Of a stretch of 34,884 nucleotides of DNA, positions 1,594 to 24,059 are shown piece by piece (positions within the stretch are counted from its first letter, which is position 1; the number at the start of each line of letters is the position of its first letter). Source of the DNA: a virus. Its lineage: Duplodnaviria > Caudoviricetes. Below the pieces are notes generated by a model, which was not told the DNA's origin, did not search any database, and saw only the letters and a list, made by a program, of their open reading frames with translations. The position numbers and the translations under genes are program-made. The stretch is from positions 1 to 34,884 of IMG/VR virus record IMGVR_UViG_3300016667_000907. One strand, 5' to 3'.

Positions 1594-1812
1594 GTGAACC
1601 CAACACCAGCAGACGTGATCGATCTAGTCACTACAAGGGATGCTGCTACGTTTGTAGATGCTGTCAATAGTATTCTCAACAGAAAGGCTGCTGAGAGTAT
1701 CAGTAATATGCGACAGGAAGTAGCACAGAATATTATTACCCCTGCTGAAGATCGTGATGATACCGTTGATCAAGACGAAGAAGCAGAGGACGACACAGAT
1801 GAAAACGTTTAA
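1594..1812 (+). CDS. Small acidic prohead core protein (gp67-like by position)
   Basis: GTG start with GGAG RBS, late-promoter-like AATAAATA/ACTAAATA upstream, acidic C-terminus, position directly after the portal gene. Confidence 0.6.
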   Translation: MNPTPADVIDLVTTRDAATFVDAVNSILNRKAAESISNMRQEVAQNIITPAEDRDDTVDQDEEAEDDTDENV

Positions 1813-2335
1813 GTCTCTAGTTAACGAGATTTACGAGCCAAATACACCTGATACTGGCAAGTTTATTAACATGCACACTATCAGAACATTTGACTATCCG
1901 GTAAAGAATGATCACGGACTACCTTTCCGTGATGATCGAATCAAGGCTCCTGGGCCTCAGCATAAGAAGCCAGCCACATATGAGCCTCCTCATGAGCCTG
2001 CACGGGTTTATAAGAGCGCTAATGAACTTAAGCTTCGCAATGAAAATGTTGAACTTCGCAAGCAGCTCGGTCTAAATCCGAACGAGCAGGAACTATTCGA
2101 AGTATCAGACATCATGTCTCTTCTTCAGGTAGTATCTGATTATAATCATCCCACCCAGATCTTCTTCGAAGATAATGATCCTATTACTATCGATAAGGAT
2201 CTAGCTGACCTTCTACTAAACGCATATGGCACTCTTGACGAAGATAGTCAAGATAAGTTCGAGCGCGCTCTAGTAGATTCCGAGAGTGGATTTGAGTATT
2301 GCGTTAATTTTAGCGCAGAAGGAATTGAGCAGTAA
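1799..2335 (+). CDS. Prohead core/internal head protein with capsid-targeting-like N-terminus
   Basis: Start reassigned to ATG 1799 (GAGG RBS). N-terminus MKTFKSLVNE resembles the T4 capsid targeting sequence MKTYQEFIAE. Confidence 0.6.
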   Translation: MKTFKSLVNEIYEPNTPDTGKFINMHTIRTFDYPVKNDHGLPFRDDRIKAPGPQHKKPATYEPPHEPARVYKSANELKLRNENVELRKQLGLNPNEQELFEVSDIMSLLQVVSDYNHPTQIFFEDNDPITIDKDLADLLLNAYGTLDEDSQDKFERALVDSESGFEYCVNFSAEGIEQ

Positions 2336-2733
2336 TGGCACAGGTATATGCTAACGGTACATTTGTACCCTCTAATAAGTCCATTTTCGAAGTAGTAGTG
2401 CTTGGAGCTGCTAATGGTGCTCCAATCTCTAGCTCTACTCCACTAACAGTCGTGCCAAAGCTATCTCTTGGTGGTAATCTATCACTTACTACTAATACAG
2501 CCAATGGTTCTACCTATACATCATTTGCAAATCAGGCCTGTGCTCAGCTAACTGTCAGCAACGATTCTACCGTCAATCTAGATGTTCAACAGGACGGAGC
2601 CGGTGCGGCATTTAAGGTACAAGCCGGCACATACTATACGTTTTTTGGCATCACCAACGCTAATCAGATCGGTGTTCGTAGATCGGACGTTGCAAATACA
2701 TCGACTACTGTTACAGCACGCTGGGAATCGTAA
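2335..2733 (+). CDS. Putative beta-rich virion structural protein
   Basis: TAATG-coupled to neighbours, rich in T/S/N/A/V, located in the head cluster. Confidence 0.6.
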   Translation: MAQVYANGTFVPSNKSIFEVVVLGAANGAPISSSTPLTVVPKLSLGGNLSLTTNTANGSTYTSFANQACAQLTVSNDSTVNLDVQQDGAGAAFKVQAGTYYTFFGITNANQIGVRRSDVANTSTTVTARWES

Positions 2734-4490
2734 TGACTCGATTACTATCACGCAGCAACAACGGTAAAGTATTTAATACATTTACACCAGGACGTTTGTT
2801 TGGCGCTGGTGAAGTTGGTGTGTGGTATGACCCGTCCGACCTGACGACGCTGTATCAGGACACGGCTGGCACTACGCCAGTGACGGCTGCCGGGCAGACG
2901 GTCGCGCTGATGCTGGATAAGTCGCGCGGGCTGGTGCTTGGCAGCGAGCTGGTCAGCAATGGCGACTTCGCCAACGGCAGCACGGGATGGACGCTGGACC
3001 CTAGTTGGTCGGTGTCTGGTGGTGCTGCATCGACCAACTCCACGGGGGTAATCAGCCAAGCGGTTGCTGGCGCACCTCGCTGGCTTCGGGTGCAGTTCGA
3101 TATCCTGGCTATTTCCGGGGCTATTGCGGCGAACTACGGCCAGACGAACTGGCTGCACAACTCACAAGGCCCAATATACAACAGCACGGGCACCAAGGTC
3201 AGCTACATCCAGATCAATCCATCTGCGTCGTCTGGCTCAATGCAAGTGTATTTCCAGACGTTCAGCGCGGGCCAGACCGCCACCATCGACAACATCTCCG
3301 TCCGCGAGCTTCCCGGCAACCACGCCACGCAGGCCACCGCCGCGTCTCGGCCGACCTACGGCGTCGTGCCGCTGGGCGGGCGGCGGAACCTGCTGACCTA
3401 TACCGAGCAGTTCGACAACGCGGCATGGGCCAAGGATGGTCTGACCGTCACTCAGGTGTCCGGGGCAGAGTGGTCGCTTGTGGAGGGGACCAACACAACC
3501 CGCAAGAGCATTCAAGCCGTCAGCATCGGCCTGTTAAATGGCCGACTTTCAGTCGAGGCCAAGCCAAACGGCCGAAATTTCATTGCCATAGGATCAACGA
3601 ACGGCGCTGGTATCTGGTCGGTCTACTTGTTCAACATCGCCACCGGGACGGCAGTCGGAGGCTATCAAGCCTCCGGGGTGGCGATACCAACGAACCCGAC
3701 GATCACGTCCGTTGGGGACGGCTGGTATCGCGTTGGAGTCACACTGCAAACTGCTGAACGCCCCGTAATAATGATCGGCAACGGTGGTGATCCGATTTTT
3801 GAGGGTTACACAGGCAACGGCACATCCGGCGTCCGCATCCGTCGCCCACAACTCGAAAGCGGCAGCACCGCCACCGCCTACCAGCGCGTCGTCTCGCAGT
3901 ATGATGTGACCGAGGCGGGCGTGCAGAGCCTGTCCTACCTGTCGTTCGACGGCGTGGATGACCGCATGGCCACGAGCATAGCGGTCAACTTCAGCGCCAC
4001 TGACAAGATGACGGTGTTTGGTGGGGTGCGGAAGATCGGCGCAGGCACCTATGCCTCGCTGATTGATCTGGGTGATAACCCGACTGGTGTTGCTGGTGGG
4101 TTGTCTTTCTACGTCAACGGTGGTGGCGCCAACAATGTGGCAATTGCCAACTACAGTGTTGGCGCTAGGGCCGAGGCCATCTTCTCTCCAGTTAATACCG
4201 GCGCAAACTTGGTCCTCACATCGCAACACGATAGAGGCGGCACCACTGGCGCGCTGAGTGAACTATCCTTGCGCTCTAACGGCGTATCTGTTTCCGGCTG
4301 GCAGGACGGCTCTGCTTCCGGCAGCACGGGCAACTTCGGCTCTTATGTGCTGTATGTCGGCATGAGGACGCGAGGCGACCTGTTCTACAACGGGCAACTT
4401 TACGGCATCATTGTGCGCGGCGCCGCCACTGACACACTCTCAATTCAAAGAACAGAATCTTGGTTAAATAAACGTACGGGTGCTTATTGA
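2733..4490 (+). CDS. Large beta-sandwich virion protein (decoration/fibre, carbohydrate-binding/LamG-like domains)
   Basis: 585 aa, G/S/T/N-rich. Motifs WYDPSDLTTLYQD, ELVSNGDF, IDNISVRE, RRNLLTYTEQFDNAAW, LSFDGVDD are typical of phage adhesin/decoration proteins. Interior is GC-rich. Confidence 0.7.
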   Translation: MTRLLSRSNNGKVFNTFTPGRLFGAGEVGVWYDPSDLTTLYQDTAGTTPVTAAGQTVALMLDKSRGLVLGSELVSNGDFANGSTGWTLDPSWSVSGGAASTNSTGVISQAVAGAPRWLRVQFDILAISGAIAANYGQTNWLHNSQGPIYNSTGTKVSYIQINPSASSGSMQVYFQTFSAGQTATIDNISVRELPGNHATQATAASRPTYGVVPLGGRRNLLTYTEQFDNAAWAKDGLTVTQVSGAEWSLVEGTNTTRKSIQAVSIGLLNGRLSVEAKPNGRNFIAIGSTNGAGIWSVYLFNIATGTAVGGYQASGVAIPTNPTITSVGDGWYRVGVTLQTAERPVIMIGNGGDPIFEGYTGNGTSGVRIRRPQLESGSTATAYQRVVSQYDVTEAGVQSLSYLSFDGVDDRMATSIAVNFSATDKMTVFGGVRKIGAGTYASLIDLGDNPTGVAGGLSFYVNGGGANNVAIANYSVGARAEAIFSPVNTGANLVLTSQHDRGGTTGALSELSLRSNGVSVSGWQDGSASGSTGNFGSYVLYVGMRTRGDLFYNGQLYGIIVRGAATDTLSIQRTESWLNKRTGAY

Positions 4491-4876
4491 TGATTAGAAT
4501 TACTATTGCATGCCCTGCTCAATATATCCAAGATGCCAATCAACTAGCAGCATGTCTAGGATTTTCTATGGCAGATGCTGAGACATATGGCCCAGCTGTA
4601 TGGCAGGACTCAACAGATAACCTATATTCTTGTGCTTCCCTAGACGTATCAGAAGAATGGTTTACTGCAGCCCAACAACCACTAATTAGACCAGACTGGG
4701 ATATAGATAATCAAATCAATATGGATGCCGCATCAAGAGCACAGGCTCTTATTGTTGTATCTCAAGAAACTATACTTGCTACGCCTAGTAAGATTACGGT
4801 TATAGCAGGTATGGAAGGCGTTACGGCTATTCAAATGATGGGTATATCCGCTATAACTCTTGATATTAATAAATAA
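4487..4876 (+). CDS. Hypothetical protein, likely partner of the upstream virion protein
   Basis: Overlapping stop/start coupling with the 585-aa gene; 129 aa. Confidence 0.65.
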   Translation: MMIRITIACPAQYIQDANQLAACLGFSMADAETYGPAVWQDSTDNLYSCASLDVSEEWFTAAQQPLIRPDWDIDNQINMDAASRAQALIVVSQETILATPSKITVIAGMEGVTAIQMMGISAITLDINK

Positions 4877-8622: not shown

Positions 8623-9057
8623 ATGAAGCTTGAAGATATACTGAATGAATGGGATAGAGACTGTAACATCGATAGACTAGAGATTAGTAACGAGAGTCTA
8701 GACATATCGAAGTTACATAACAAGTATCTAAGAATAATGACCGCTGAAAGCGTACTGCTTCGCAGTACTACACAAGAGTATAATCGATTATACAAGCTTA
8801 AATGGGAATATTACCTGGGTCATCTGGATGATGATATACTCAAGGAGTATAACTGGGAACCTAATAGACTAAAGATTCTCAGACAAGACGTAAGCATATA
8901 CCTAGACAGTGACTCGGATTTACAGAAACTTAAGTCTAGACAAGACCTACAAAAAGAGAAGATTGCTGTACTAGACTCCATCATGAAATCGATATCCAAT
9001 AGAGGGTTTCAAATCAAGAACTACATTGAATATGAAAAGTTTCGTGTTGGAGCATAG
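8623..9057 (+). CDS. uvsY: UvsY recombination mediator
   Basis: W..D..ID...L, LH.KYL, KWEYY.G, I..RGFQIKN.IE..KF..G; directly upstream of uvsW. Confidence 0.9.
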   Translation: MKLEDILNEWDRDCNIDRLEISNESLDISKLHNKYLRIMTAESVLLRSTTQEYNRLYKLKWEYYLGHLDDDILKEYNWEPNRLKILRQDVSIYLDSDSDLQKLKSRQDLQKEKIAVLDSIMKSISNRGFQIKNYIEYEKFRVGA

Positions 9058-9079
9058 CCTTAACCTATAAACGCAGTAT

Positions 9080-9153
9080 CACCCGAGTATCTTACAAATA
9101 TATAAACATAGCTGGTGAACATCAGTATGTCATATTTGTAAGATACACGGGTG
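9080..9153 (+). promoter_or_regulatory. 22-bp stem hairpin covering the uvsW RBS, with late promoter-like TATAAACA
   Basis: Arms 9080-9101 and 9132-9153 pair with 1 mismatch. TATAAACA at 9101-9108; start codon at 9158. Confidence 0.8.
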
Positions 9154-9157
9154 CATA

Positions 9158-9904
9158 ATGGATGTATTGACGGTACATAAGATTAATGAAGTCTATTTGA
9201 GAGTAACAAGCGAGCCGCATATAGAACAAGAGCTCTCGGATTACTTCAAATTTGATGTACCACAGGCCAAGTTTATGCCAGCGTTTCGTCGCAAGGCTTG
9301 GTCTGGGTCCATTTTTCTATACTCACTAACAACCAAGACGCTATACTGTGGGCTACTCAAGCATCTCGAGCTCTTTTGTAAAGAAAGAGATATTCGAATC
9401 GAGTATACCGCCGAGATTAAACCACAAGATTTTACAGTAGAAGACGCCAAGAGGTTTATTCAGTTAATAAAGCCTACCCGTGAACCTCGCGATTATCAGA
9501 TAGAAGCATTTGTTAATTGCGTGAGAGAACATAGAGCACTGACTCTATCCCCTACCGGTTCAGGTAAGTCTCTCATCATCTACTTACTTACACGACTTTA
9601 CACCTATAATTCATCCAAACGTAAAGCATTAATCATCGTACCTACACTTGGTCTCGTACATCAAATGGCGGATGATTTTGTCGACTACGGCTGTGATCCT
9701 GACGAAATATACAAGATACATGGTGGTATCGATAAGCTACCTGAGCGTGTAGTAGTAACTCTAGAAAACGGTAAAGAGATTGCCTTTCAGAGCAATCAAT
9801 CTATAAAATTGATAAATAACTATCAGAAACACAAACTAGCAAAAGATCTGATAGAAACTGATGAAATTGACGATCGATGGCTTGCACAATATATGCAAGA
9901 ATAA
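9158..9904 (+). CDS. uvsW: UvsW helicase, N-terminal fragment plus 55-aa Hint-like extension
   Basis: PRDYQ Q-motif, Walker A SPTGSGKS, LIIVPT. UvsW similarity ends near KIHGGIDK (9736). Confidence 0.9.
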   Translation: MDVLTVHKINEVYLRVTSEPHIEQELSDYFKFDVPQAKFMPAFRRKAWSGSIFLYSLTTKTLYCGLLKHLELFCKERDIRIEYTAEIKPQDFTVEDAKRFIQLIKPTREPRDYQIEAFVNCVREHRALTLSPTGSGKSLIIYLLTRLYTYNSSKRKALIIVPTLGLVHQMADDFVDYGCDPDEIYKIHGGIDKLPERVVVTLENGKEIAFQSNQSIKLINNYQKHKLAKDLIETDEIDDRWLAQYMQE

Positions 9905-10595
9905 GTATTATAAAATATATACAAGTCTTATAGCGCGATGTAAACTACGTACCCCAGTACAAGGTGTATATTATGAATCGCACCATATAACACCGCGCTC
10001 TCTCGGTGGTACAGACGATAGTGATAATATCGTGTTATTGACAGCTCGTGAACATTACATTGCACATATGTGTTTAGTGCGATTTGTAACTGGCCAAGGT
10101 AAATACAAAATGGTTAAAGCGGCCATGGCTATGTCAATGACAAAGGATAGAGACGAAAAAGAAAGAATATTAAGTTCGCGGCTATATGAAGCAAATAGAA
10201 AGTTATACTCAGCGCTACTAACACTACACCTATTAGAACATTCACCCTTCAAAAATAAAGAAACGCACCGCAAAGGTATGCATACCCGTGCTGTAAATAA
10301 TAGTAGCCCGTTTCGTGCAAACAATCCCATGCACTCTTTAGATTCAAAAATGAAGAAAGTAGCAAAAACATCCGGAGAAAACCACTATTTACGAAAAACG
10401 CGCCGGTATAGTATAAGTTATGATCGTGGTGAAACGTGGTCACCTATTGATACTAGTCATGGCCTACCTGCTGCGCAGCAAGCACTAGGTATCAAGCACG
10501 GGTTATTTTTTAAGCTGTTGAATGGTGATATACCATCCAGGGGACCTAATATCAATATACGCATTAAACGAGAGATCATTAACAATGAAGATTAA
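9861..10595 (+). CDS. HNH homing endonuclease inserted in uvsW
   Basis: YESHHITPRSLGGTDDSDNIVLLTAREHYIAH motif; NPMH/GENH NUMOD-like segments. Confidence 0.92.
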   Translation: MKLTIDGLHNICKNKYYKIYTSLIARCKLRTPVQGVYYESHHITPRSLGGTDDSDNIVLLTAREHYIAHMCLVRFVTGQGKYKMVKAAMAMSMTKDRDEKERILSSRLYEANRKLYSALLTLHLLEHSPFKNKETHRKGMHTRAVNNSSPFRANNPMHSLDSKMKKVAKTSGENHYLRKTRRYSISYDRGETWSPIDTSHGLPAAQQALGIKHGLFFKLLNGDIPSRGPNINIRIKREIINNED

Positions 10596-11505
10596 GAAGA
10601 TTGAGAAGCGCTCCCCATCAATCATTATTTCATGCTGGCAGTCAATATATAAACTACCCCGCCAGTGGTTTGATCAGTTTAAGGTAGTTATTGGTGATGA
10701 ATGCCATCAGTATAAGGCTAAGTCTCTTACTGGTATTCTAGGTAAGTTGATCTCTTGCAAGTATCGATTTGGCTTTACCGGTACTCTGGATAATCTACAA
10801 GTCAATAAGTTGGTTATCGAAGGAGTGTTTGGGCCTGTTAATCGTGTAATTACTACACGTGAGCTTATCGATAGAAAGCAATTAGCAGACCTAGACATCA
10901 AAATCCTGGTACTGAAGTATCCGGAAGAGATGCGTAAGATTGTAAAAGATTGTGATTATCCTGCTGAGATGGATTTTCTATGCTCCAACGCTGAACGTAA
11001 TGAGTATATTAAAAAGCTCGCCTTGAACCTCGAGGGAAATACGCTAGTACTCTTTCAGTATGTTGACAAGCACGGTAAGATTCTTTATGATATGATAAAG
11101 AATTCAGGTAAGCAATGTCATTTTATTCACGGCGGCGTTAAGGGTGAAGACAGAGAAGATATCAGACATCTTGTAGAGAAGAGCAGTAACGATATTATTA
11201 TCGCATCATACGGCACATTCTCCGCCGGAGTTAACATTGTTAATCTTCACAATGTAGTATTTGCTAGCCCATCTAAGTCGAAGATTCGCAACCTACAGTC
11301 TATTGGTCGTGGCCTTCGCGTATCAAATGTCAAAAAGACCGCAACCCTTTACGACATTGCGGACGATCTCACGTATAAGACGAATAGAAACTACACGCTA
11401 AACCACCTCATAGAACGGGTAAAGGTGTATGATGACGAAAAATTTAATTACAAGACGTTCAATATCGAACTATACGGAAACACCAGTAATAATCAAGTTG
11501 ATTAG
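10585..11505 (+). CDS. uvsW: UvsW helicase, C-terminal fragment with short basic leader
   Basis: Start reassigned to ATG 10585 (MKIKKIEKR-SPSIIISCWQS). Motifs DECH, GFTGT, SYGTFSAGVNI, LQSIGRGLR. Confidence 0.9.
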   Translation: MKIKKIEKRSPSIIISCWQSIYKLPRQWFDQFKVVIGDECHQYKAKSLTGILGKLISCKYRFGFTGTLDNLQVNKLVIEGVFGPVNRVITTRELIDRKQLADLDIKILVLKYPEEMRKIVKDCDYPAEMDFLCSNAERNEYIKKLALNLEGNTLVLFQYVDKHGKILYDMIKNSGKQCHFIHGGVKGEDREDIRHLVEKSSNDIIIASYGTFSAGVNIVNLHNVVFASPSKSKIRNLQSIGRGLRVSNVKKTATLYDIADDLTYKTNRNYTLNHLIERVKVYDDEKFNYKTFNIELYGNTSNNQVD

Positions 11506-11788
11506 CGGAGAAGAATTACTGGTATCCAGTATCACTGCCCATCAAGGGCGAGCCATCATCACTGATCCGTATTGCATTATACGATTGCTGGGGCAAGAGA
11601 AGACTAACTACCAATTAGATAAATGGATGCCTTTTACCGCATCCGATGAGTTTGAGCTTGATTTGGATCATATTATCACATATAATCTACCTAACAATGA
11701 ATTAACCGCGTTTTATATACATGTGATGCAATCGGATAGTACTCAATATGGAACAAGCTCAACCTATTCAGAATACCAAGTACACTAG
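11429..11788 (+). CDS. Conserved T4-like hypothetical protein (possibly Sm-like); start uncertain
   Basis: IIKLISGEEL...L.KWMPF pattern; lies between uvsW and gp55. Confidence 0.6.
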   Translation: MMTKNLITRRSISNYTETPVIIKLISGEELLVSSITAHQGRAIITDPYCIIRLLGQEKTNYQLDKWMPFTASDEFELDLDHIITYNLPNNELTAFYIHVMQSDSTQYGTSSTYSEYQVH

Positions 11789-13621: not shown

Positions 13622-15333
13622 TGTCAATTGTTTTCAAAAAGATCCGATGGAAGAATTTTCTTAGCACGGGCAATACCTTCACCGAAATTGATCTTAATGC
13701 TAATAAGCATACACTTATCGTAGGTGATAATGGAGCGGGTAAGTCGACTATCCTCGACGCCCTCTCCTACGCCCTGTATAATAAGCCTTTTCGAACTATC
13801 AATAAACCTCAACTACTCAACTCCATTAATCAGAAGGGATTGGTGGTGGAGATTGAGTTTAATATCGCTAATGATCAGTATATGATTCGACGAGGTATGA
13901 AACCTAACGTGTTTGAAATTGCACGTAATGGTACACTCGTCAATCAAGATGCTGCTAGCCGCGACTATCAAGAATATCTCGAAAAGAATATTCTTAAACT
14001 AAACCACAAGTCGTTTTCTCAAATTGTCGTGCTAGGATCAGCATCGTTTGTTCCTTTCATGCAGTTAACGGCGGCTAATCGACGAGCTGTTATTGAAGAT
14101 CTACTTGATATTCAGATCTTCTCCGTAATGAATACTATTCTCAAGTCACTTCTCACCGAGAATAAAAACAAGATCGTAGATACTGATTATCGCATCTCCA
14201 TTAACCGTGAAAAGGTAAAGCTTAAGCAAGAACACATCAATAAGCTCAAGCAAGATAAAGAACATATTATTATCAATGTCAAGAGTAATATTGCTAAGTG
14301 TGAACGCGAGATCATCAGTAAGCAGAAAGAACTCGAAGAATACCGTAATCAAGTAACAGCACTGTATGATACTATCAGCGATCAAAAAAAGACTAATAAG
14401 CGTGCTGAATCACTATCTCATCTAGAAACGCAACTTAATGAGAAGCTTGCTCGCATTCAGCGCGAAAAGCAGTTCTTTCATGATTATGACACTTGCCCTA
14501 CTTGCAGACAGGATATTAACACCACATTCAAGTGTGAGATGATAAAGAGTAAGGAGAATCTCATTAATGAGATTGCTGATGGTTTACAATCTCTAACTGA
14601 ACAGCGCCAGAGAGCAATTACTAGGCAAGAAGAAATTGCTGAAGTATTAAGCGCTATTAATAATCTCGAAAAGAAAATCACGAGTAATAACAGCGACATC
14701 AACCTACAAAATACGTTAATCACTCGATATAACGAAGAACTCAAGAGGTATTCCACAGAGAAGGCTGAAATTGATACTAATGAGCTTCTAACCCTGCAAG
14801 ATGAGCTGAAAGCCGCTCAAGAACTAAAGGATACACTAGTGAAAGACCAGCAAGTACTAGAACTAGTAAGCAGTCTTCTCAAGGATACTGGTATCAAGGC
14901 TAAGATTATCAAGCAGTATATTCCTATTATGAACAAGCTGATCAACAAGTACCTGGCAGCTATGGACTTCTTTGTTAACTTTGAAATTAACGAAAACTTC
15001 GAGGAGTGTATCAAGTCGAGATATAGGGATGAGTTTAGTTACGCGTCTTTCAGTGAAGGTGAGAAGATGCGTCTCAATCTCGCTATTCTCTTTGCTTGGA
15101 GGGCTATTGCTAAGCTACGCAATAGTGCAGCCACAAATATTCTGTTCTTTGATGAGGTGCTTGATGGTTCACTAGATTCCGCTGGTATCGACGATTTCAT
15201 GAAGATTATCAGCAACTTAACCACAGATACTAATACATTCATCATCAGTCATAAGACAGACGTCATGGCTGATAAGTTTCAAAACATTATTCGCTTCGAA
15301 AAGCATAAAAACTTTAGTCGGATGGTCACGTGA
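13621..15333 (+). CDS. gp46: Recombination ATPase subunit gp46 (Rad50/SbcC-like)
   Basis: KNFLS.GN, Walker A GDNGAGKS, zinc hook CPTC, signature FSEGE, Walker B FDEVLD, IISH. Confidence 0.96.
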   Translation: MSIVFKKIRWKNFLSTGNTFTEIDLNANKHTLIVGDNGAGKSTILDALSYALYNKPFRTINKPQLLNSINQKGLVVEIEFNIANDQYMIRRGMKPNVFEIARNGTLVNQDAASRDYQEYLEKNILKLNHKSFSQIVVLGSASFVPFMQLTAANRRAVIEDLLDIQIFSVMNTILKSLLTENKNKIVDTDYRISINREKVKLKQEHINKLKQDKEHIIINVKSNIAKCEREIISKQKELEEYRNQVTALYDTISDQKKTNKRAESLSHLETQLNEKLARIQREKQFFHDYDTCPTCRQDINTTFKCEMIKSKENLINEIADGLQSLTEQRQRAITRQEEIAEVLSAINNLEKKITSNNSDINLQNTLITRYNEELKRYSTEKAEIDTNELLTLQDELKAAQELKDTLVKDQQVLELVSSLLKDTGIKAKIIKQYIPIMNKLINKYLAAMDFFVNFEINENFEECIKSRYRDEFSYASFSEGEKMRLNLAILFAWRAIAKLRNSAATNILFFDEVLDGSLDSAGIDDFMKIISNLTTDTNTFIISHKTDVMADKFQNIIRFEKHKNFSRMVT

Positions 15334-15896
15334 TGGTAGAATCTCCAGAAAAAGTACGAACCACGTTTACGTTAGAAACAAAAGCGGTCCCTATTACTAT
15401 CGAACCCAGGTTTGTATCTAGTGAACTATGGAACTTTGATAATCCATATTGCAATATTCTCAAATTACAATATACTATGATCAATACATGTGCGCATTAT
15501 CGAGCGATGTCTCTTTCCGCTCCACTGATTGATATTAATACTTCCGTTATCGTACTCAAAGGGGAACCATACCTTGTCCTTATCAATCCAAAAATTGTTT
15601 CTGTTTCCGATGAACTGGCCATCGCTACAGAATCTTCCCCTGCTTATCCTGGTCTTAGTGTTAAGGTTACTCGCCCCTTAAGCGTTCGAGTACGATACAA
15701 AGATATCGATGGTACAACGCACACCGAAAAGTTCAGCGGAGGATATTCTCGTTTAATACAACATGAAATGTGTCATATTGAAGGTCGACCTTTCTGGCAC
15801 GATTGTAATTTTTTAAACCGTAATAAGGCAATCAAGGACTGGAAAGCTATTAAACGTAAGCTAAGTAAGCTTACACTGGCCTCCCAGTCTAACTAG
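15330..15896 (+). CDS. Peptide deformylase-like protein with degenerate active site
   Basis: LINPKI, V.RP.SVRVRY.D..G and QHEMCH present. GxGxAAxQ appears as AMSLSAPL and EGCLS as ESSPA. Confidence 0.8.
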   Translation: MMVESPEKVRTTFTLETKAVPITIEPRFVSSELWNFDNPYCNILKLQYTMINTCAHYRAMSLSAPLIDINTSVIVLKGEPYLVLINPKIVSVSDELAIATESSPAYPGLSVKVTRPLSVRVRYKDIDGTTHTEKFSGGYSRLIQHEMCHIEGRPFWHDCNFLNRNKAIKDWKAIKRKLSKLTLASQSN

Positions 15897-15907
15897 GAAT
15901 CAACATA

Positions 15908-16396
15908 ATGCAATACAAGTACGTCTCCACCAAAGAATATATCAATGCGTTTCCATGCGCATATCGGCAGTGGCGAGCTGACTCACACTGCAACCTAATT
16001 CATGGCTATAGCTTCTCCATGAAGTTCTTCTTTGGTACAAACGACCTTGATGTTCGTAACTGGGCTGCTGATTACGGCGGCCTCAAAGAACTCAAGAAGA
16101 TTCTAGAAGATCAATTTGACCACACACTACTAGTAGCAGAAGATGATCCTGAACTAGAGATGTTCAAGGAACTAGAACGCAAGAAGATGGCTAAGCTTAC
16201 CATTCTTCCTCGTCTTGGTTGCGAATCTCTAGCTGATATGCTATACAGGTATGTCAATGGAGTCTATATCCCTGAATACTGGGGCCCAGGCGAAGCTGAA
16301 CGGCTGTGGTGCTTTCGAGTAGAAGTGCGAGAAACGGTGGCTAATATGGCTTATCGTGAAGGTCATCGCGACTGGAATGAAAATCTTCTAGGTTAA
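15908..16396 (+). CDS. queD: 6-carboxytetrahydropterin synthase QueD
   Basis: C..IHGY, DYGGLK.LK..L...FDH, E.LA, VEVRET. Confidence 0.9.
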   Translation: MQYKYVSTKEYINAFPCAYRQWRADSHCNLIHGYSFSMKFFFGTNDLDVRNWAADYGGLKELKKILEDQFDHTLLVAEDDPELEMFKELERKKMAKLTILPRLGCESLADMLYRYVNGVYIPEYWGPGEAERLWCFRVEVRETVANMAYREGHRDWNENLLG

Positions 16397-16408
16397 GGTA
16401 AATACAAT

Positions 16409-16504
16409 ATGGCTAAGATCAAGGTTTCCGAGATCTTCTACTCTCTACAGGGTGAAGGTCAATACGTTGGCGTCCCATCTATTTTTCTAAGGACGTTTGG
16501 TTAA
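16409..16504 (+). pseudogene. queE: Orphan queE 5' fragment (31 aa), absent from the ORF track
   Basis: Translates [31 protein letters not shown]; AAGG RBS. Last 24 aa are identical to the full queE at 17188. Confidence 0.9.
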
Positions 16505-16554
16505 CTGTGTAGGCTTCGAAGGATATATAACTGCATAGGCTTCGGAGCAGAACC

Positions 16555-17187
16555 ATGATTGTATACGGAATAGAAAACAAAATTACAGGTGATATTTACG
16601 TTGGTAAGACCAAGCATACTGTAGAGCAACGATGGAAGAGACATCTTCAAGATATGAAGTACACTAAAACGAAGTCGAAGCTTTATAATGATATTAAGAA
16701 GTATGAGCCTGATAATTTTGTGCTGTATATAATCGAACAATCCAGTGCTAGCCGTATTAATGAGCGAGAAATCTATTGGATAGAAGTACTTGAGCCCGCT
16801 TATAATATTGCTAAAGGTGGTAGCGGCGGAGTTATCGGCACAGGACAACTTGGTCGCCGCTGGAAAGTAAAGGATACCTCAAATATGAGAGGAAAGAAGA
16901 CGATAACTCCGGCTGTTATAGAAGGTAGAAAGCAAATAACAGGGGCTAATAATTATCAGTCGGTGTATAATATACACACGCCGTGGGGTAGTTACCCGAC
17001 CTGGACCGCTGCCATAACAGCTGCTCGAACTGGAAGAAATACTGGTATACCTGTGATAACTAATGTTATCACACTACAAAAATACTGTGAATCTGATATA
17101 ACATTACCCGCTAATGGAAGACGGACTCCAAAAGAATGGAGAGGTAAGTCTTCTCGAGAATTAGGGTTCTTTTTGGAGAAGCGCTAA
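16555..17187 (+). CDS. GIY-YIG homing endonuclease (Seg-like)
   Basis: IVY.I.N..TG.IYVG.T, RW..H, E.YWI, YN...GG.GG. Confidence 0.93.
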   Translation: MIVYGIENKITGDIYVGKTKHTVEQRWKRHLQDMKYTKTKSKLYNDIKKYEPDNFVLYIIEQSSASRINEREIYWIEVLEPAYNIAKGGSGGVIGTGQLGRRWKVKDTSNMRGKKTITPAVIEGRKQITGANNYQSVYNIHTPWGSYPTWTAAITAARTGRNTGIPVITNVITLQKYCESDITLPANGRRTPKEWRGKSSRELGFFLEKR

Positions 17188-18060
17188 ATGACTGCTATTT
17201 CTTATACAGAGATCTTTTATTCACTACAAGGCGAAGGTCAATACGTCGGTGTACCATCGATTTTCCTACGCACGTTCGGATGTAATCTGCGTTGCAAAAA
17301 GTTTGGAATTCCGCGCGACCAGGAAGTGGGTAAGTATAACCCGGAAGTAGAAAAGATCCTATCTGGAGGTCTCGATCAATATAACAAGTACGAAGATCTA
17401 CCTCTAGTATCTACTGGGTGCGATTCTTACGCTTCGATCTATCCTGAGTTTAAGCGGTTTGCCAAGCGTGAGTCTATCGGTGCTATTGCTAATCGTATTC
17501 AGGAACTGCTCCCGGGTGGTAAGTTCGGCCGCGATAAGCATATGATCATTACCGGCGGCGAACCCCTACTAGGCTGGCAGCGTTCGTTTCCAACTCTACT
17601 AGAAGAGTTCGAGACCCGTAACATGGGCATGACTCATCTTACATTTGAGACAAACGGTACCCAGGCTCTTCAGACTGAACTGCGTAACTTCCTATTCGAT
17701 CGTGCGTTGAAGGGTCTGGAAGTAACCTTCTCTATCTCGGCTAAGCTACCGGCTTCGGGTGAGAAGTGGGAAGATGCTATTCGACCCGATATTGTTCGAG
17801 AGTATATCAAGGTACCGAATCACCGCAGCTATTTCAAGTTTGTGGTATCGACAGAGGAAGATATTCAAGATGCGCATCGCGCGGTGAATGAATATCGAAA
17901 TGCTGGTATTGATATTCCAGTATATCTAATGCCTGTCGGTGGCACTAATGCAGTGTATGATCTTAATGAGCGCGCGGTAGCTGATTTCTGTCGTGATAAT
18001 GGGTATCGCTTCTCTCCACGCATTCAAGTCCCCCTGTATAAGAATGCATGGAGCACCTAA
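17188..18060 (+). CDS. queE: 7-carboxy-7-deazaguanine synthase QueE (radical SAM)
   Basis: [40 protein letters not shown]. Confidence 0.93.
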   Translation: MTAISYTEIFYSLQGEGQYVGVPSIFLRTFGCNLRCKKFGIPRDQEVGKYNPEVEKILSGGLDQYNKYEDLPLVSTGCDSYASIYPEFKRFAKRESIGAIANRIQELLPGGKFGRDKHMIITGGEPLLGWQRSFPTLLEEFETRNMGMTHLTFETNGTQALQTELRNFLFDRALKGLEVTFSISAKLPASGEKWEDAIRPDIVREYIKVPNHRSYFKFVVSTEEDIQDAHRAVNEYRNAGIDIPVYLMPVGGTNAVYDLNERAVADFCRDNGYRFSPRIQVPLYKNAWST

Positions 18061-18103
18061 AAAGTGACAATGCAAATCCACAATCAAACAAGATGCGCTA
18101 TGA

Positions 18104-18448
18104 TTGAATGGGAAACTAATCATGGTTGAGCTATTACCTTCCAATATTCACGATAAGTCCGTGTATGATACCAGTGATATTGCAGATATCGCCTCTGCCA
18201 AGTCGGTGCTTATTCGCTCACTAAAGCAAGTCGCCAAGTATAAGAAGAAGCTAGACGAATATAACGATATCGCGTATAGGTATAGGCTTTATCTTATTCG
18301 GTACTGCCTGGGCACTGAATGTGCTAAGGTAGAAACTACCGTAAAAGAATCATATTCATATGAGGATGATTACGGTAGCCTTAAGACGGGGGTTAAATCG
18401 GTAGAGGTATATAAGTGCACTACTTGCGATAAGACCTGGAGTCGATAA
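18104..18448 (+). CDS. Hypothetical protein with Cys pairs (possible zinc ribbon); start uncertain
   Basis: CLGTEC and CTTC; TAATG-coupled to the PRTase gene. Confidence 0.55.
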   Translation: MNGKLIMVELLPSNIHDKSVYDTSDIADIASAKSVLIRSLKQVAKYKKKLDEYNDIAYRYRLYLIRYCLGTECAKVETTVKESYSYEDDYGSLKTGVKSVEVYKCTTCDKTWSR

Positions 18449-18876
18449 TGTTTTACTCACAAGAACTATTCAATCAAGGTATTGAGAGCCTATCCAAGCA
18501 GATTACAGACTCTGGGATTAAGTATAACTATATTGTAGGGATCAATCGCGGAGGTCTAATCCCCGCGACTGTTCTTTCTTATAAGCTAGGAATCCCCCTC
18601 AAAGTAATTACCGTACAGACATATGACGATAAGGTAATCGAGGTAAATGTACCTAGGCATTACGTTGTAACGTATAACTGCCTTGTCGTAGATGATATTA
18701 TCGATAGCGGACGAACACTAAATGTGTTGCTTGATAAGTGGCAAGTGCGTACAATGGATGTCGCGTGCTTGGTATATAATCAAGGTCAGGACGAGTTCGC
18801 TCCAACGTATAAGCACTTGACGATTGATAAGCGTCAAGATTGTTCCTGGGTAACATTCTGGTGGGATTGCAAATAA
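18448..18876 (+). CDS. Type I phosphoribosyltransferase (Gpt/HPRT-like)
   Basis: VGINRGGLIPA, PRPP-binding LVVDDIIDSGRT, WV.FWW. Confidence 0.92.
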   Translation: MFYSQELFNQGIESLSKQITDSGIKYNYIVGINRGGLIPATVLSYKLGIPLKVITVQTYDDKVIEVNVPRHYVVTYNCLVVDDIIDSGRTLNVLLDKWQVRTMDVACLVYNQGQDEFAPTYKHLTIDKRQDCSWVTFWWDCK

Positions 18877-19577
18877 TGACAAAGACTACTATTCCTGTTT
18901 CTGAGCGCATTAAGTCACGTATTATCACTAGCGGTAAGCGCTTTTTTGCGTGTGATAATGTGTCTGATTTTATGTACGATGGTGAGGAGGAAGAGCTCGT
19001 ACTCGAGCTTACCGGTAAGTTTAATTCTGTTATCGATTCTCTCGTGATCGACCGCGAAAATGATCCTAATAGTCACGACACGGGTAATCGCTTAGCCAAG
19101 ATGTATGTTTATGAAATCATGTCCGGTCGTTATGAGAAGGCGCCTAAGGTAACTGCTTTCCCTAATACTGGCGAGAATTCTTATAATGGTATGCTAGTAG
19201 TACGTGCAGAGATTAAGTCTATGTGCTCTCATCACCACCAGCCGGTTAGTGGTGTAGCTTACATCGGCATTATTCCTACTAGTAAGGTCATTGGTCTTTC
19301 CAAGTACATTCGTCTTGCGCAGTGGTATGCACGTCGAGGTCAGCTGCAAGAAGAACTATGCGAACAGATCGCTAATGCTATCGTACAAGCTACCGGTAGT
19401 GATAGTGTAGCGGTATATCTACAAGCCGAGCATGGCTGCTGCACTAACCGTGGTGTAGAAGCGCATAGTTCTCTAACACAAACGACTGTACTTCGTGGTC
19501 AGTTCCACGACTCAAGTGTGAAGACTGAATTCTTCAATAATATCTCTATTCAACAGCAGTATTCTTCGAGGGGATAG
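18876..19577 (+). CDS. folE: GTP cyclohydrolase I FolE
   Basis: T..R.AKMY, SMCSHH, IGLSK..R, R.QLQE, H.C...RGV. Start reassigned to ATG 18876. Confidence 0.95.
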   Translation: MTKTTIPVSERIKSRIITSGKRFFACDNVSDFMYDGEEEELVLELTGKFNSVIDSLVIDRENDPNSHDTGNRLAKMYVYEIMSGRYEKAPKVTAFPNTGENSYNGMLVVRAEIKSMCSHHHQPVSGVAYIGIIPTSKVIGLSKYIRLAQWYARRGQLQEELCEQIANAIVQATGSDSVAVYLQAEHGCCTNRGVEAHSSLTQTTVLRGQFHDSSVKTEFFNNISIQQQYSSRG

Positions 19578-19587
19578 TATTACTAGT

Positions 19588-19619
19588 GGGAGTAAGCATT
19601 GCGCTTACTCCCTTGTTTT
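19588..19619 (+). terminator. Rho-independent terminator after folE
   Basis: GGGAGTAAGC-ATTGC-GCTTACTCCC followed by TTGTTTT. Confidence 0.8.
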
Positions 19620-19660
19620 AGATATTACTGGAACAGTTCTGTATATTAGAGGATATTTAA

Positions 19661-20449
19661 ATGCGTATTGCCCATGAAGCTCCTATCGCGATCTTTAATC
19701 TAGTACAGGAGATGACTGATTATGATTATTGCTTAGTCCACCTCATGGATGAACTTCCAGAATATCGTGATCTATTTCTCAAAGCTCGTGATGAAGGTGA
19801 AGAGATCATCCTCGATAACTCCATCTTTGAACTAGGTGAGGCGTATAACGCCGATCAATATTACGAGTGGGTAAAGGTACTACAGCCCAAGTACTTCATT
19901 ATTCCAGACAGCCTGAATAACTCGGCTGTTACTCTACAGCGTATGGAACATTGGTTTGATACTCGTGCTCCAGTACCTGGTTGTGGCGCTATGGCTGTAG
20001 TACAAGGATCTTCTATGGAAGAGCTAGTTGATTGTTACGCGAAGATTGCATATGATCCGCGTGTGGCTAAGATTGGTATCTCTTTTGATTCTATTTGCTA
20101 CTACGATAGTAACAGCCCACTATCCCGTGAAGCGCAGTTTATGAAGGGACGTAGTAACTTCATTCAATATCTTATTGAGAATAAGCTAGCAAATACTGAG
20201 AAGCCGCACCACCTGCTAGGTTGCTCTCTACCTCAAGAAATGTTCTTCTATCGTAATGTACCTTGGATTGAATCTGTAGATACATCCTCCCCGGTTGTAA
20301 ATGGATTACTCCACATCAAGTATACTATTCTAGGTCTCGAGTCTAAGCCTTCAGTGAAGCTATTTACTCTCATCAACTCTGAAGTGTCGGATGAGCAGGT
20401 AAACCTGATCGAGCATAACGTTAATATGTTTAGGAGTTTTTGTAATTGA
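19661..20449 (+). CDS. Divergent TGT-like TIM-barrel protein (DpdA3-like transglycosylase)
   Basis: ILDNS, IIPD, AVVQG, HHLLG, SVDTSSP match the TGT-fold motif order; embedded in the que cluster. Confidence 0.7.
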   Translation: MRIAHEAPIAIFNLVQEMTDYDYCLVHLMDELPEYRDLFLKARDEGEEIILDNSIFELGEAYNADQYYEWVKVLQPKYFIIPDSLNNSAVTLQRMEHWFDTRAPVPGCGAMAVVQGSSMEELVDCYAKIAYDPRVAKIGISFDSICYYDSNSPLSREAQFMKGRSNFIQYLIENKLANTEKPHHLLGCSLPQEMFFYRNVPWIESVDTSSPVVNGLLHIKYTILGLESKPSVKLFTLINSEVSDEQVNLIEHNVNMFRSFCN

Positions 20450-20991
20450 AGTGGATAGCTCTATTTTCCCAGTCGGGGTCAGAAATTGCTAGGCTAGCTA
20501 GTAATCTAGGTACTTGCCCCGACATGACTATCACTACTAATCGTGATTATAGCACATGGCACCCCGGTGTACGTCTGCTACCCCGAGTAGCTATCATGAA
20601 GAGCGAAGATATCCATTACATGCTAGAATCACGTGATGAGACTACTCTTATCACCATGCATGGGTATCTTCGTATTCTACCCGCTGCGGTGTGTAATAAA
20701 CACGAAGTGTATAATGGTCATCCTGGAGATATTATTAAGTACCCCGAACTAAAGGGTAAGGATCCTCAGAAGAAGGCTGTTGAACTAGACTTACCTTCAA
20801 CCGGTGTTGTTATTCACCGCGCTACAGAGAAACTCGATAGTGGCGATATTTACCGGTTCGCTCGTGTAGATATTCCAAAGCATGACGAGGAGCAACTAAC
20901 CCAAGCCTTGAAAGATGCATCTGTTAAACTGTGGACTGATTTCATGACAGATATTCTTTATACACTACGACATACACGAGGTGGTCTATGA
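20446..20991 (+). CDS. PurN-family formyltransferase (DpdN-like preQ1 formyltransferase)
   Basis: LFSQSGS, GYLRILP, NGHPG, GVVIH, LDSG correspond to PurN/Fmt motifs. Confidence 0.82.
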   Translation: MKWIALFSQSGSEIARLASNLGTCPDMTITTNRDYSTWHPGVRLLPRVAIMKSEDIHYMLESRDETTLITMHGYLRILPAAVCNKHEVYNGHPGDIIKYPELKGKDPQKKAVELDLPSTGVVIHRATEKLDSGDIYRFARVDIPKHDEEQLTQALKDASVKLWTDFMTDILYTLRHTRGGL

Positions 20992-21542
20992 AAATTGGCG
21001 TTTGTGGAGCCCAGAGTGTAGGCAAGACTACACTGCTTAATGCGTTAAGGTCAGAACGAGTATTTAAGGGTTATAGTATTTGCAATGAGGTAACCAGGAC
21101 AGTAAAGTCTTGGGGGCAGAGTATTAATGAGGGTGGTACCGATCTAACTCAACGCATGATCATGCTTCTTCATTTGGAGAATGTGACTCTACATGACAAT
21201 ATGATTACCGACCGCACCGCTCTAGATTGTCTCGTATACGCCCGATACCTGCATAAGCAGCAGCAACTTGATGCTTCTTCTGTACTCTATTGTAACGAGA
21301 TGTTCTGGAAGATCTGGCCTCAATACGATGCCGTGTTCTTTATTAAGCCAGAGTTCTGCATTGAAGATGATGGGGTTCGCAGCGTAAGTGTACAGTTTAG
21401 GGATCAAATCCAGAAAGAATTCGTACAAGTTATCGAAGAGCTTGAACTATACAAAGATCGAGTATATTATCTAACTGGTAGTGTTGCTCAGCGTGTCAAT
21501 CAAGTACTAACCGTTTGTAAGGAAAATTATAATGTCTATTGA
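20988..21542 (+). CDS. P-loop NMP-kinase-like protein (NadR/AAA_28-like)
   Basis: GAQSVGKTT, E..R, DRT.LD..VY, YD..F, EDDG.R. Confidence 0.8.
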   Translation: MKIGVCGAQSVGKTTLLNALRSERVFKGYSICNEVTRTVKSWGQSINEGGTDLTQRMIMLLHLENVTLHDNMITDRTALDCLVYARYLHKQQQLDASSVLYCNEMFWKIWPQYDAVFFIKPEFCIEDDGVRSVSVQFRDQIQKEFVQVIEELELYKDRVYYLTGSVAQRVNQVLTVCKENYNVY

Positions 21543-22455
21543 TAAGATTCTCGAGATTGCTTCTGTACACCTTGGTAAGGCTGGTGATGGTAGTGTTGTA
21601 AAGCCATATCAGACCCCTGATCGGGCTGATCCTTCTCTACTAGTTCCTATTCCCCGTGAACTAAATCGTACCGCGTATAAGATTACTGATGAGATCTTTA
21701 CTGGGTATGATAGTTGGAATTGCTATGAGACCAGCTTCCTACTCAATAACGGCTACCCTGTTAGTGGCGTTCTGGTGATTGAGTATCTATCCAACTCGGA
21801 ATGTATTGTAGAGTCCAAGTCACTCAAGCTATATCTAAACTCATACAATATGATGCGTATGGGTTATAGTATTGATGAGGCTATTTCACAGTTCACTGAT
21901 TGTGTGGAGTACGACCTAAATCGAGCGCTTAATACTCATGTAAGCGTGTCTTTTGTACAGAACAGTCAAAAGCCTTGTGTGGTTCCTCTCTATAATGTAG
22001 ACTTTCTATCGATTGATGATCTGGTCGATGTTTCCAGTCTTCAGTTTGATACCTACAATGAAGATCCATCTCTCATTAAGGCGGTAGAGTCGAGTACTGA
22101 TACAGTACAGCGTTTGCATACTTCTGCACTACGTTCAAACTGTCGAGTGACTAATCAGCCAGATTGGGGCGATGTTTATATTCATATTCGTGGTAAGCGT
22201 TTGGTAGATCCAGGTTCACTGCTACAGTACATTGTATCCATGCGACAGGAGAATCACTTTCACGAAGAAATTTGTGAAATGATGTATGCGCGTCTCTTTG
22301 AGATTCTCGAACCAGCCGAGCTCTTTGTGGCTTGTAATTACACTCGTCGCGGCGGTATTGATATCAATCCAGTGCGGGCGTCTGATACTGTTACTCTGAG
22401 TCTCGCCAATTCATGCATGTATACAGGTGTATACGCCAAGACTATGAGGCAGTAA
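21532..22455 (+). CDS. queF: Bimodular preQ0 reductase QueF
   Basis: W.CYE, ESKSLKLYLNS, LRSNC.VT.QPDWG, FHEE.C, YTRRGG.DINP. Confidence 0.96.
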   Translation: MSIDKILEIASVHLGKAGDGSVVKPYQTPDRADPSLLVPIPRELNRTAYKITDEIFTGYDSWNCYETSFLLNNGYPVSGVLVIEYLSNSECIVESKSLKLYLNSYNMMRMGYSIDEAISQFTDCVEYDLNRALNTHVSVSFVQNSQKPCVVPLYNVDFLSIDDLVDVSSLQFDTYNEDPSLIKAVESSTDTVQRLHTSALRSNCRVTNQPDWGDVYIHIRGKRLVDPGSLLQYIVSMRQENHFHEEICEMMYARLFEILEPAELFVACNYTRRGGIDINPVRASDTVTLSLANSCMYTGVYAKTMRQ

Positions 22456-22456
22456 T

Positions 22457-22837
22457 ATGGCGAAGTATGATCATGGTGGAGGATGCCCTTGCGGGCTCCT
22501 CCCTGAATGTGACAATAAATGCAACATTGCATTGGAACAACAATACATCAGCGCACTAATGGCTTCGAAAAATATCTTGCAAGATAATATTATTAAGAAA
22601 GTTGTGACGGATACCCGGTCGCCTGACACTAATGTGGAGGCGATACGTGAATCACTTCTACAGCGCTCCATTGTGGGTCTCAAAAAGTACAATACTACCA
22701 CAAATCGTACCGATCTTACTATGGGAGATTGGTTACAGCATCTTCAAGAAGAGCTTTTAGATGCCGCGGTTTACGTAGAGCGGCTTAAAAGTATGGTACG
22801 AAGTCTAGAAGCTGTATTTGGACCTGTTAAGAAGTAA
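22457..22837 (+). CDS. Conserved phage protein, possible all-alpha NTP pyrophosphohydrolase (MazG-like)
   Basis: RS.VG.KKY..T..R.DL...DWLQHLQEELLDAAVY with an EExxD acidic cluster; Cys-rich N-terminus. Confidence 0.5.
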   Translation: MAKYDHGGGCPCGLLPECDNKCNIALEQQYISALMASKNILQDNIIKKVVTDTRSPDTNVEAIRESLLQRSIVGLKKYNTTTNRTDLTMGDWLQHLQEELLDAAVYVERLKSMVRSLEAVFGPVKK

Positions 22838-22848
22838 GTAGATAAGAG

Positions 22849-22877
22849 TAGCATCATTATCCTCCAAGGTATATAAT
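22849..22877 (+). promoter_or_regulatory. sigma70-like promoter
   Basis: TAGCAT, 17 bp spacer, TATAAT, followed by AGGAG RBS. Confidence 0.6.
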
Positions 22878-22894
22878 GTGTAGGTTAGGAGATA

Positions 22895-23290
22895 ATGATG
22901 CTACCTCAGATCGGTCAAACAGTATCGGTTATTATTCGAAATAACCGCAAGGATCTGGATAGTTTCCGCCGCGCGGATTATAAGATTGAAGGTGTGGTTG
23001 TTCCCAATCATCGCTGGTTGAAGGATGACCACATCTGCGTTCTTACTAAAGATCGTAATTTTATCTCCCAGATCGCTATCAAGAATATTGTTTCCATCGA
23101 CGGTATTCAATCAAAGACTCCTTCAAAATCTACTAGCAATACACGCGTATATCAGGTAAAGTCTGTAAAGTCTGGTAGCGTGTACAATGTTACAATCTCT
23201 AATGATCAGGTGCAGTGCGATTGTGTTGGATTTCAATACCGACGCGATTGCAAGCACGCCCAGTTCATTCGTAAGATTAATACAATCTAA
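22895..23290 (+). CDS. SWIM zinc-finger protein
   Basis: V.S.KSG..YNV...CDC..F..R..CKH. Confidence 0.8.
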   Translation: MMLPQIGQTVSVIIRNNRKDLDSFRRADYKIEGVVVPNHRWLKDDHICVLTKDRNFISQIAIKNIVSIDGIQSKTPSKSTSNTRVYQVKSVKSGSVYNVTISNDQVQCDCVGFQYRRDCKHAQFIRKINTI

Positions 23291-23300
23291 AGGATAGAAT

Positions 23301-24059
23301 ATGTCACTCACAACCCAATACCTTGATCGTCTTTCCTCTTCTAAGCGCGGTGCTGTTATCGTGCTGTCAGGTGGTATGGATAGTACTATCGCTATGCGTC
23401 TGGCGGTAGCCAAGTATGGAAACAGCAATGTACGGGCTTTGACTTTTAACTACGGTCAGAAGCAGTCTCGCGAGATTCAGATGGCCGGGCAATCAACCGC
23501 TGCGCTTGGTGTAAAGCATAAGGTTCTTGATCTAGGAATTCTAGGTGAGATCTCTCAGGGATTCTCCGCTAATGTTGATACTGGCATTGAAATGCCGACC
23601 ATTCATGATGTACTAGGTGATCCACGCCCCAAGACTTACGTTCCTAATCGCAATATGATTCTAATGTCTCTATGCGCTGCGTATGCTGAAGTAGAAGACA
23701 TTGATCAGATCATCATGGGCTTGCAGGTCAATGATGAATATGGATATCATGATACCACGCAGCGATTTGTGGATAAGGTGAATAGTGTTCTAAGCGAGAA
23801 TCGTATTATTAAGATCGAGATCATCGCTCCTTTTGCTTCTATTACTAAGACCGACGAGATTATGCTTCTCAAGGAACTTGATGGTAATGTGAATCTACTA
23901 GAGCACACTCTTACTTGTTATAATCCAAATGAGAAGGGGCAGTCTTGTGGTAAGTGTCCTTCTTGTGCTGAACGAATCAAGGCGTTTGTTAATAACCGAT
24001 TGATTGATCCGGTGCCATACTCTATTAATATTGACTGGCATCGCTTTATGGGTCTATAA
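23301..24059 (+). CDS. queC: 7-cyano-7-deazaguanine synthase QueC
   Basis: SGGMDS, F.YGQK, YVPNRN, TCY..CGKCPSC..R. Confidence 0.96.
   Translation: MSLTTQYLDRLSSSKRGAVIVLSGGMDSTIAMRLAVAKYGNSNVRALTFNYGQKQSREIQMAGQSTAALGVKHKVLDLGILGEISQGFSANVDTGIEMPTIHDVLGDPRPKTYVPNRNMILMSLCAAYAEVEDIDQIIMGLQVNDEYGYHDTTQRFVDKVNSVLSENRIIKIEIIAPFASITKTDEIMLLKELDGNVNLLEHTLTCYNPNEKGQSCGKCPSCAERIKAFVNNRLIDPVPYSINIDWHRFMGL

Follow-up and report, generated by a model that had tools for sequence, protein, structure and literature searches.

A half-intein-like module at the break of a nuclease-split UvsW helicase gene

The split uvsW locus of a T4-like phage

In the T4-like phage record analysed here, the helicase gene uvsW is broken into two pieces (9158-9904 and 10585-11505) by an HNH gene that overlaps both. 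The window, i.e., the whole stretch of DNA that was analysed, is a 34.9-kb fragment (34,884 nucleotides) of this record, with the gene order portal, head protease, major capsid, tail-tube-like gene, uvsY, uvsW and late sigma factor. A sequence-only reading had proposed that the UvsW pieces carry the remains of a split intein, and the open reading frames are as it described them. The N-piece, of 248 aa, contains the Pfam domains UvsW_N, DEAD and ResIII, the HNH protein has 244 aa, and the C-piece, which begins at the ATG at 10585, contains Helicase_C. A longer C-piece start offered by the ORF finder (10522) is not supported; in relatives such as L003, L004, L088 and L094, the corresponding Met is preceded by a stop at a distance of 1 to 5 codons.

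The alignment of GenBank phage homologs to the N-piece is limited to its first ~200 residues. The N-piece ends in a 55-aa tail whose last 14 codons are also the start of the HNH gene (an overlap of 44 nt), while the C-piece opens with a short basic leader, its ATG lying in the 11 nt shared with the end of that gene. In 75/75 intact uvsW junctions examined, the spacing is a constant 20 residues and both tail and leader are missing; therefore, both extensions are foreign to UvsW and, as the sequence-only reading had presumed, no ordinary insertion of the helicase. The coordinates which that reading gave for the tail and for the ATG stand, while the end that it gave for the leader, 10611, is better stated as a range: by length, the host resumes after Glu7 (10605), and by a Pro that is invariant in 14/14 leaders, after residue 11 (10617). 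The features of the locus are as follows.

9158..9736, + strand: UvsW N-piece, host part (N-domain, Walker A, motif Ia), from the ORF, Pfam, PHROG and GenBank homologs
9737..9868, + strand: tail core, homologous to the N2 lobe (the second) of an intein N-fragment, with Gln at both the block-B Thr and His positions (9788, 9797), from profile, fold and alignment
9811..9818, + strand: candidate T4-type late promoter core GATAAATA, inside tail codons, that would serve the HNH gene
9869..9904, + strand: tail end, an acidic DD-x-W/F stretch with the stop at 9902-9904, overlapping the HNH gene start
9861..10595, + strand: HNH homing-endonuclease gene, open, HNH motif readable, from a domain match and relatives
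10585..10617 (boundary 10605 to 10617), + strand: basic leader, homologous to the first C-fragment strand of an intein, with no block F/G and no terminal His/Ser-Asn
10618..11505, + strand: UvsW C-piece, host part (motifs Ib to VI), frame continuous

The window HNH protein matches HNH in Pfam (E 1e-4) and the homing endonuclease family phrog_655 in PHROGs (E 2e-35), and its gene shares 43-45% identity with the HNH genes that five other phages carry at this site; homing by this protein is probable. A part-by-part comparison of identity between the window and these five relatives is by itself no demonstration of transfer. The motif TAAATA occurs in the same 27-nt stretch of 17/18 tails from the window's break position (site 1) vs 4/51 other tails, and part of the conservation at site 1 is due to the overlap with the HNH start and to the candidate promoter. 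The sole exact + strand match in the window to the T4-type late promoter consensus, which we take to be TATAAATA, lies ahead of the major capsid gene (6593). A hairpin ahead of the HNH start (9820-9854, z -2.5) was not conserved in the seven relatives folded.

Elsewhere in the window, two further free-standing homing-endonuclease-like genes are present (16555-17187, + strand; 25214-25900, - strand), one of them between the QueD- and QueE-like genes of a deazaguanine-pathway-like cluster (15908-24059; QueD-, QueE- and QueC-like genes and two GTP cyclohydrolases) that suggests DNA base modification. A phage peptide deformylase (15330-15896) adjoins a gp47/gp46-like pair. Between the portal and the head protease (1754-4876) lie four genes without the usual annotation, one of which encodes a 585-aa protein that matches no PHROG at E 1e-5.

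Intein ancestry and loss of the splicing residues

Descent of the tail and leader from an intein (Hint superfamily), as the sequence-only reading had suggested, holds; the claim rests on a uniform fold ranking together with independent sequence tests. Using a broad tail profile of 52 rows, we found two intein-bearing proteins among 59 matches (7,993 candidates scored, from 5.8 billion proteins); the true intein N-fragment in P0117 matched the tail profile at E 1e-5, and P0111 at E 3e-8, summed over three inteins. An unselected test used four canonical split-intein N-fragments located at UvsW motif II, which were picked by motif and not by score. In 4/4, the best tail-profile match fell over residues 54-93, across the TxxH lobe, with scores of 32.6, 29.3, 20.4 and 12.2 bits vs shuffle maxima of 5.3, 4.5, 7.3 and 9.9 (200 shuffles each). 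Additionally, when 617 other ORF starts were scored with a leader matrix (residues 2-8), four further leaders and four true intein C-starts took the first eight places.

The structural model is that of a natural fusion of tail and leader, P0040, and not of the window sequence. Folded with the 52 tails, P0040 reached a pLDDT of 77-86 over the tail and ~47-55 over the linker and leader, the leader strand being of low confidence; folded without an alignment, it reached 37. In the Foldseek search, inteins occupied the first 23 rows listed, at weak E-values (0.23 and above). In the exhaustive structural search with VIA, Hint folds filled rows 1-28 (Z ~7.1 to 3.4) ahead of the first other fold at 2.9; the best Z, 7.1-7.2, is below the tool's bar of 8, under which a Z value alone can reflect a common arrangement. 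The fusion model maps to residues 51-99 of Npu DnaE and 42-103 of gp41-1, with an rmsd of 2.3-3.0 Å from Hint folds over 54-67 residues, covering one lobe only. Thus, a half-Hint fold is predicted. Neither single tails nor the narrow profile matched an intein in Pfam, NCBIfam, PHROGs or PDB sequences, and the broad profile found no intein at E under 1 in PDB sequences. All curated intein families stayed below their cut-offs on the tails (the best, PF14890, at E 0.012 in 2/52), and the ESM Atlas gave nothing at 0.9 or above.

In intein chemistry, the first nucleophile and the terminal Asn must adjoin the exteins. The tail begins at the hairpin ahead of block B, the model mapping to residues 42-51 onward of solved inteins; therefore, position 1 (Cys/Ser) and the first lobe (block A) are missing. 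In the alignment to a true intein, the block-B Thr (9788) and His (9797) positions of the window both read Gln. The sequence-only reading had noted the replacement of His, which is borne out, and the replacement of Thr goes beyond it; across the 52 tails, these columns hold His in 0/52 and Thr in 2/52. Blocks F/G and the terminal His/Ser-Asn with a +1 Cys/Ser/Thr are missing as well, since [HS]N-[CST] occurs in 0/47 leaders, whereas the true intein C-fragments in the same genes do carry His/Ser-Asn followed by Cys/Ser/Thr. The absences listed from the window alone (Cys1, first lobe, block F, terminal His-Asn) thus extend to the family and, judged by its residues, the module cannot splice by known chemistry.

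Spread of the module among phage genes

A region search yielded 14 further N-pieces of ~250 aa with the same tail at their end (15/18 candidates, window included). Of seven relative loci, five show the order tail, HNH gene and leader, one is a cut contig, and one (L006) has a decayed nuclease between intact peptides. The tail profile had 45 matches in 1.84 billion representatives, of which 39 were read; the other six were five repeat proteins, set aside as false, and one protein already in the set. All 39 carry the tail as a terminal or inserted module: 32 are UvsW pieces broken at site 1, three are UvsW pieces broken at a second site ahead of motif V (site 2), one is P0040, in which site 1 has an in-cis fusion of the module and site 2 a further tail, and one is a DnaE fragment. 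The remaining two are N-fragments that may be radical-SAM-like, as read from a Cys motif and with no Pfam hit. Motifs Ib and V form the Ser/Thr strand in the respective RecA-like domains of the helicase; because sites 1 and 2 both precede this strand, we read them as equivalent places in the two domains.

Pattern scans of virus and metagenome contigs raised the total to 69 distinct tails in the fetched loci, with 68/69 distinct pattern matches being terminal tails. Among the 30 pattern loci, ten (L119 and nine genes for sigma factors) were discarded as false, as were the L155 match and the Staphylococcus tail-protein rows. None of nine candidates was a longer protein with the window's own tail, and neither the window's own record nor the two larger genomes searched held a second module. 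Altogether, the module occupies four UvsW positions and DnaE, with an HNH, a GIY-YIG or no nuclease between tail and leader, in keeping with the expectation that the same pair would recur at other sites and in other genes. At L179, UvsW is split ahead of motif IV with a GIY-YIG-like gene between the pieces, while UvsW of L196 has two modules. At the DnaE locus, the second piece, two genes later, begins with a short leader-like stretch. Among 47 pairs with a pattern-found leader, the pieces are more than 500 nt apart in 30 (mostly with an HNH or GIY-YIG nuclease between them, as judged roughly by motif), 7 retain a remnant, and in 10 the gap is at most 50 nt, both peptides being still present in these last. 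In cultured phages, the site-2 form is found, with tail matches in 19 Dickeya and 36 Vibrio records, of which XF4 and K469 were read. Two in-cis fusions, with the tail directly ahead of the leader, are known from single-contig records (P0040 and P0105).

The non-nuclease genes that lie between pieces, a fibre-like Gly/Thr-rich gene between UvsW pieces in L111 and an extra ORF in the DnaE locus L230, imply that pieces can drift apart. A canonical split intein at motif II coexists with the non-splicing module at site 2 in a three-piece uvsW at L128, L176, L185 and L205, and the same double arrangement is found in P0071, P0081, P0083, P0095 and P0100; the canonical motif II split intein is a plausible donor of the module. 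Just after the leader, 24 of the 31 site-2 C-pieces read have a stop-bearing gap, mostly of 4 or 7 nt, that interrupts motif V (loci include L097, L101, L109, L117, L134, L180, L196 and L205). In six 7-nt cases, a Tyr codon stands before the gap and another ends it; a hairpin lies just upstream in all four inspected, and five more site-2 C-pieces have a one-base shift in a T run. The gap is a candidate programmed stop-hop or +1 shift, like that of T4 gene 60.

On a host tree of 65 N-parts, 9 changes are required to explain the site-1 split, of which strong branches force at least 5; the rows scored as intact at site 1 include site-2 splits. Split forms are interspersed among intact cyanophage-like genes, and this scattered spread over the host tree points to a mobile module and, indirectly, to homing by the HNH protein.

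Function of the module and comparison with known systems

The recurrence of a splicing-dead half-intein on nuclease-split enzymes is real and well supported. As to its function, the catalytically dead central Hint lobe likely holds the separate UvsW pieces together without splicing, to which we assign a probability of about 0.7, the binding of tail to leader being inferred. One transcript would likely give three proteins, their translation coupled via the gene overlaps, and the acidic tail would then likely capture the basic leader to form one small beta domain. The folded lobe may hold the cut first RecA-like domain of the helicase together with no protein joining, its entry and exit being presumably close enough for a surface loop, as the in-cis fusions imply. 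With such a clasp, the enzyme would tolerate the nuclease insertion and the split would not easily be lost, and the tail and leader would be needed for helicase activity. The module may have originated by trimming of a canonical split intein, e.g., one at UvsW motif II. In split inteins, electrostatic capture has been mapped to the N2 lobe and the C-fragment (PMC11923092), the very parts retained as tail and leader. The opposite charges seen in the window by the sequence-only reading (tail -3, leader +4) are general, tails being net acidic in 43/47 and leaders net basic in 42/47.

More tentatively, and in a form that we lean slightly against, the lobe would be a portable one-lobe Hint clasp (~45 + 10 residues), i.e., an independent heterodimer module that gives homing nucleases a third, splicing-free route into essential genes. 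It would serve at least four UvsW positions, DnaE and a radical-SAM-like enzyme, with variants coexisting in one protein (two modules in L196 and P0040), and it would be the same domain as the insertion of T4 gp39/gp60.

The main rival to the clasp is a folding cap, in which the halves pair via the helicase's own beta-sheet and the half-Hint pendant keeps the cut ends soluble or in place, being needed for activity and adding little to pairing. Known cases point this way: the tails of Aeh1 NrdA are needed for activity and not for heterodimer formation (PMC3045599), and the T4 insertion hangs off the TOPRIM domain of a topoisomerase whose separate subunits are hard to purify (PMC11461880). From knowledge of the fold, a break inside a RecA-like domain also leaves a large host interface. 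Nevertheless, most pairs retain opposite charges, the part that has been kept is where split-intein capture was mapped (PMC11923092), and one and the same pair is used at four UvsW positions and in DnaE, and we regard a mere cap as unlikely.

Far less probable is a neutral scar, in which what is left of a decayed intein persists solely because it overlaps the nuclease start, its stop and a promoter and gives the second piece its start codon. The HNH gene does overlap both pieces, and TAAATA is conserved in site-1 tails. Nevertheless, pN/pS was 0.21 in the non-overlapping site-1 tail codons (host 0.32), and it stayed at 0.25 in the tail and 0.24 in the leader (host 0.34) at seven nuclease-less site-2 loci. 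Pooled values were 0.18-0.31 for tails and leaders vs 0.30-0.34 for host codons, all being pooled over non-independent pairs, with site-2 synonymous sites near saturation. By these ratios, selection against amino-acid change appears to be as strong in both peptides as in the helicase, and loss of the nuclease does not alter this. Additionally, both extensions outlive the nuclease, in L006 with its decayed HNH gene and in the nuclease-less loci, and the same trimmed boundaries are found at every site.

Still less probable is a group I intron that takes the tail, nuclease and leader out of the mRNA, the reading annotated in the Dickeya LIMEstone phages. The uvsW of this group has the same module at site 2 (tail 36 bits on the profile, leader after the nuclease gene), and the split, published as a putative intron in a passage that gives no splicing test (PMC3296691), is here read as a split into two proteins. 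In the window, removal of 9737-10605 would restore the usual 20-residue junction. However, no Rfam intron matched in 9000-11700 at E up to 1, the non-nuclease sequence amounts to 124 + ~10-22 nt under protein-level selection, and spacer-less loci, Vibrio phage K469 among them, keep both peptides. The loci with at most 50 nt between the pieces (10/47 relatives) leave no room for an intron, as the sequence-only reading had argued for a ribozyme at this locus. Least probable of all, the module may splice or cleave by unusual chemistry, or with the missing lobe supplied in trans, as true inteins in the same genes of some genomes (L128, L230) and a Cys a few residues past the leader in many site-1 C-pieces might suggest; against this, a contiguous first nucleophile and terminal Asn are absent at both junctions and the Cys is not invariant.

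With regard to known systems, a half-intein clasp would be closest to three. In the fractured genes that carry split inteins such as gp41-1 and NrdJ-1 (PMC2677866), as in uvsW, an enzyme gene is split around a free-standing nuclease gene that can be lost, the break falls where the endonuclease of a Hint fold usually sits, and the N part is acidic and the C part basic. These inteins keep both lobes and splice, whereas the uvsW module consists of the central lobe only; the splicing-competent fractured genes described there include none in UvsW, and 'UvsW' occurs 0 times in the available main text.

The MobA element of T4 is likewise a nuclease cassette with conserved extensions on both pieces (C-terminal on gp39, N-terminal on gp60; bioRxiv 10.1101/2022.08.31.505936). 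As in the uvsW module, the extensions outlast the nuclease, the nuclease type is swappable, and secondary fusions occur; a stop-bearing gap follows the leader, a feature of the uvsW family at site 2 and absent from the window. Host and nuclease family differ, and MobA tails lack the acidic end seen in uvsW tails. The tail profile matched seven MobA-type tails with an hhalign probability of 79% (E 1.6e-5), and six single MobA-type tails beat 486-500 of 500 shuffles. A narrow site-1 profile gave 18.5% with a shifted alignment, and the T4 tail alone gave 23%; overall, the profile suggests a weak to moderate link. T4 topoisomerase chains were not among the rows listed in the fold searches, which is neutral on this link. 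In the available text, MobA extensions are treated as a strategy apart from inteins (bioRxiv 10.1101/2022.08.31.505936), the T4 insertion is a pendant domain called an assembly chaperone, with 'intein' occurring 0 times (PMC11461880; PDB 8YO3/8YO4), and both sources describe the conserved gp39/gp60 tails with no intein link. In the Aeromonas phage AS-zj (L229), the topoisomerase large subunit carries a MobA-type extension fused in cis.

The third system is Aeh1 nrdA-a/mobE/nrdA-b, in which, as in uvsW, an HNH gene splits an enzyme whose pieces carry unspliced, oppositely charged tails (PMC3045599). The polarity is opposite to that of the uvsW module, the N-piece tail being basic and the C-piece tail acidic. 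The unprocessed tails are essential for the activity of the mobE-split ribonucleotide reductase and not for pairing of its halves; they had no database matches in 2010, and a degenerate split intein was guessed as one origin (PMC3045599). Consequently, the novelty that the sequence-only reading had claimed is narrower: non-splicing tails that rescue a nuclease-split enzyme, and the degenerate-intein guess, were already in print there. In a literature coverage with few subscription papers, and without the study of a gp43 split to which PMC3045599 refers, we found no paper that ties such tails to a single Hint lobe or places them in UvsW; the available parts of PMC2988022, PMC7824862 and PMC3322345 contain no description of the module. 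Like the MobA/MobE kind, the uvsW locus is a nuclease-split gene with foreign extensions on both pieces that are kept after nuclease loss. The module is thus kin of the split inteins by descent and not a member of them, and it belongs with the assembly tails of nuclease-split genes.

The reassembly of nuclease-split phage enzymes has been named as an open question (PMC2988022), and a shared half-intein module, if true, would give it a structural answer. It would also open the degenerate-intein guess of 2010 to testing, mean that the 'intron' annotations of cultured phages need correction, and provide a natural tag of very small size for pairing proteins. Finally, it would show that a single Hint lobe can exist alone.
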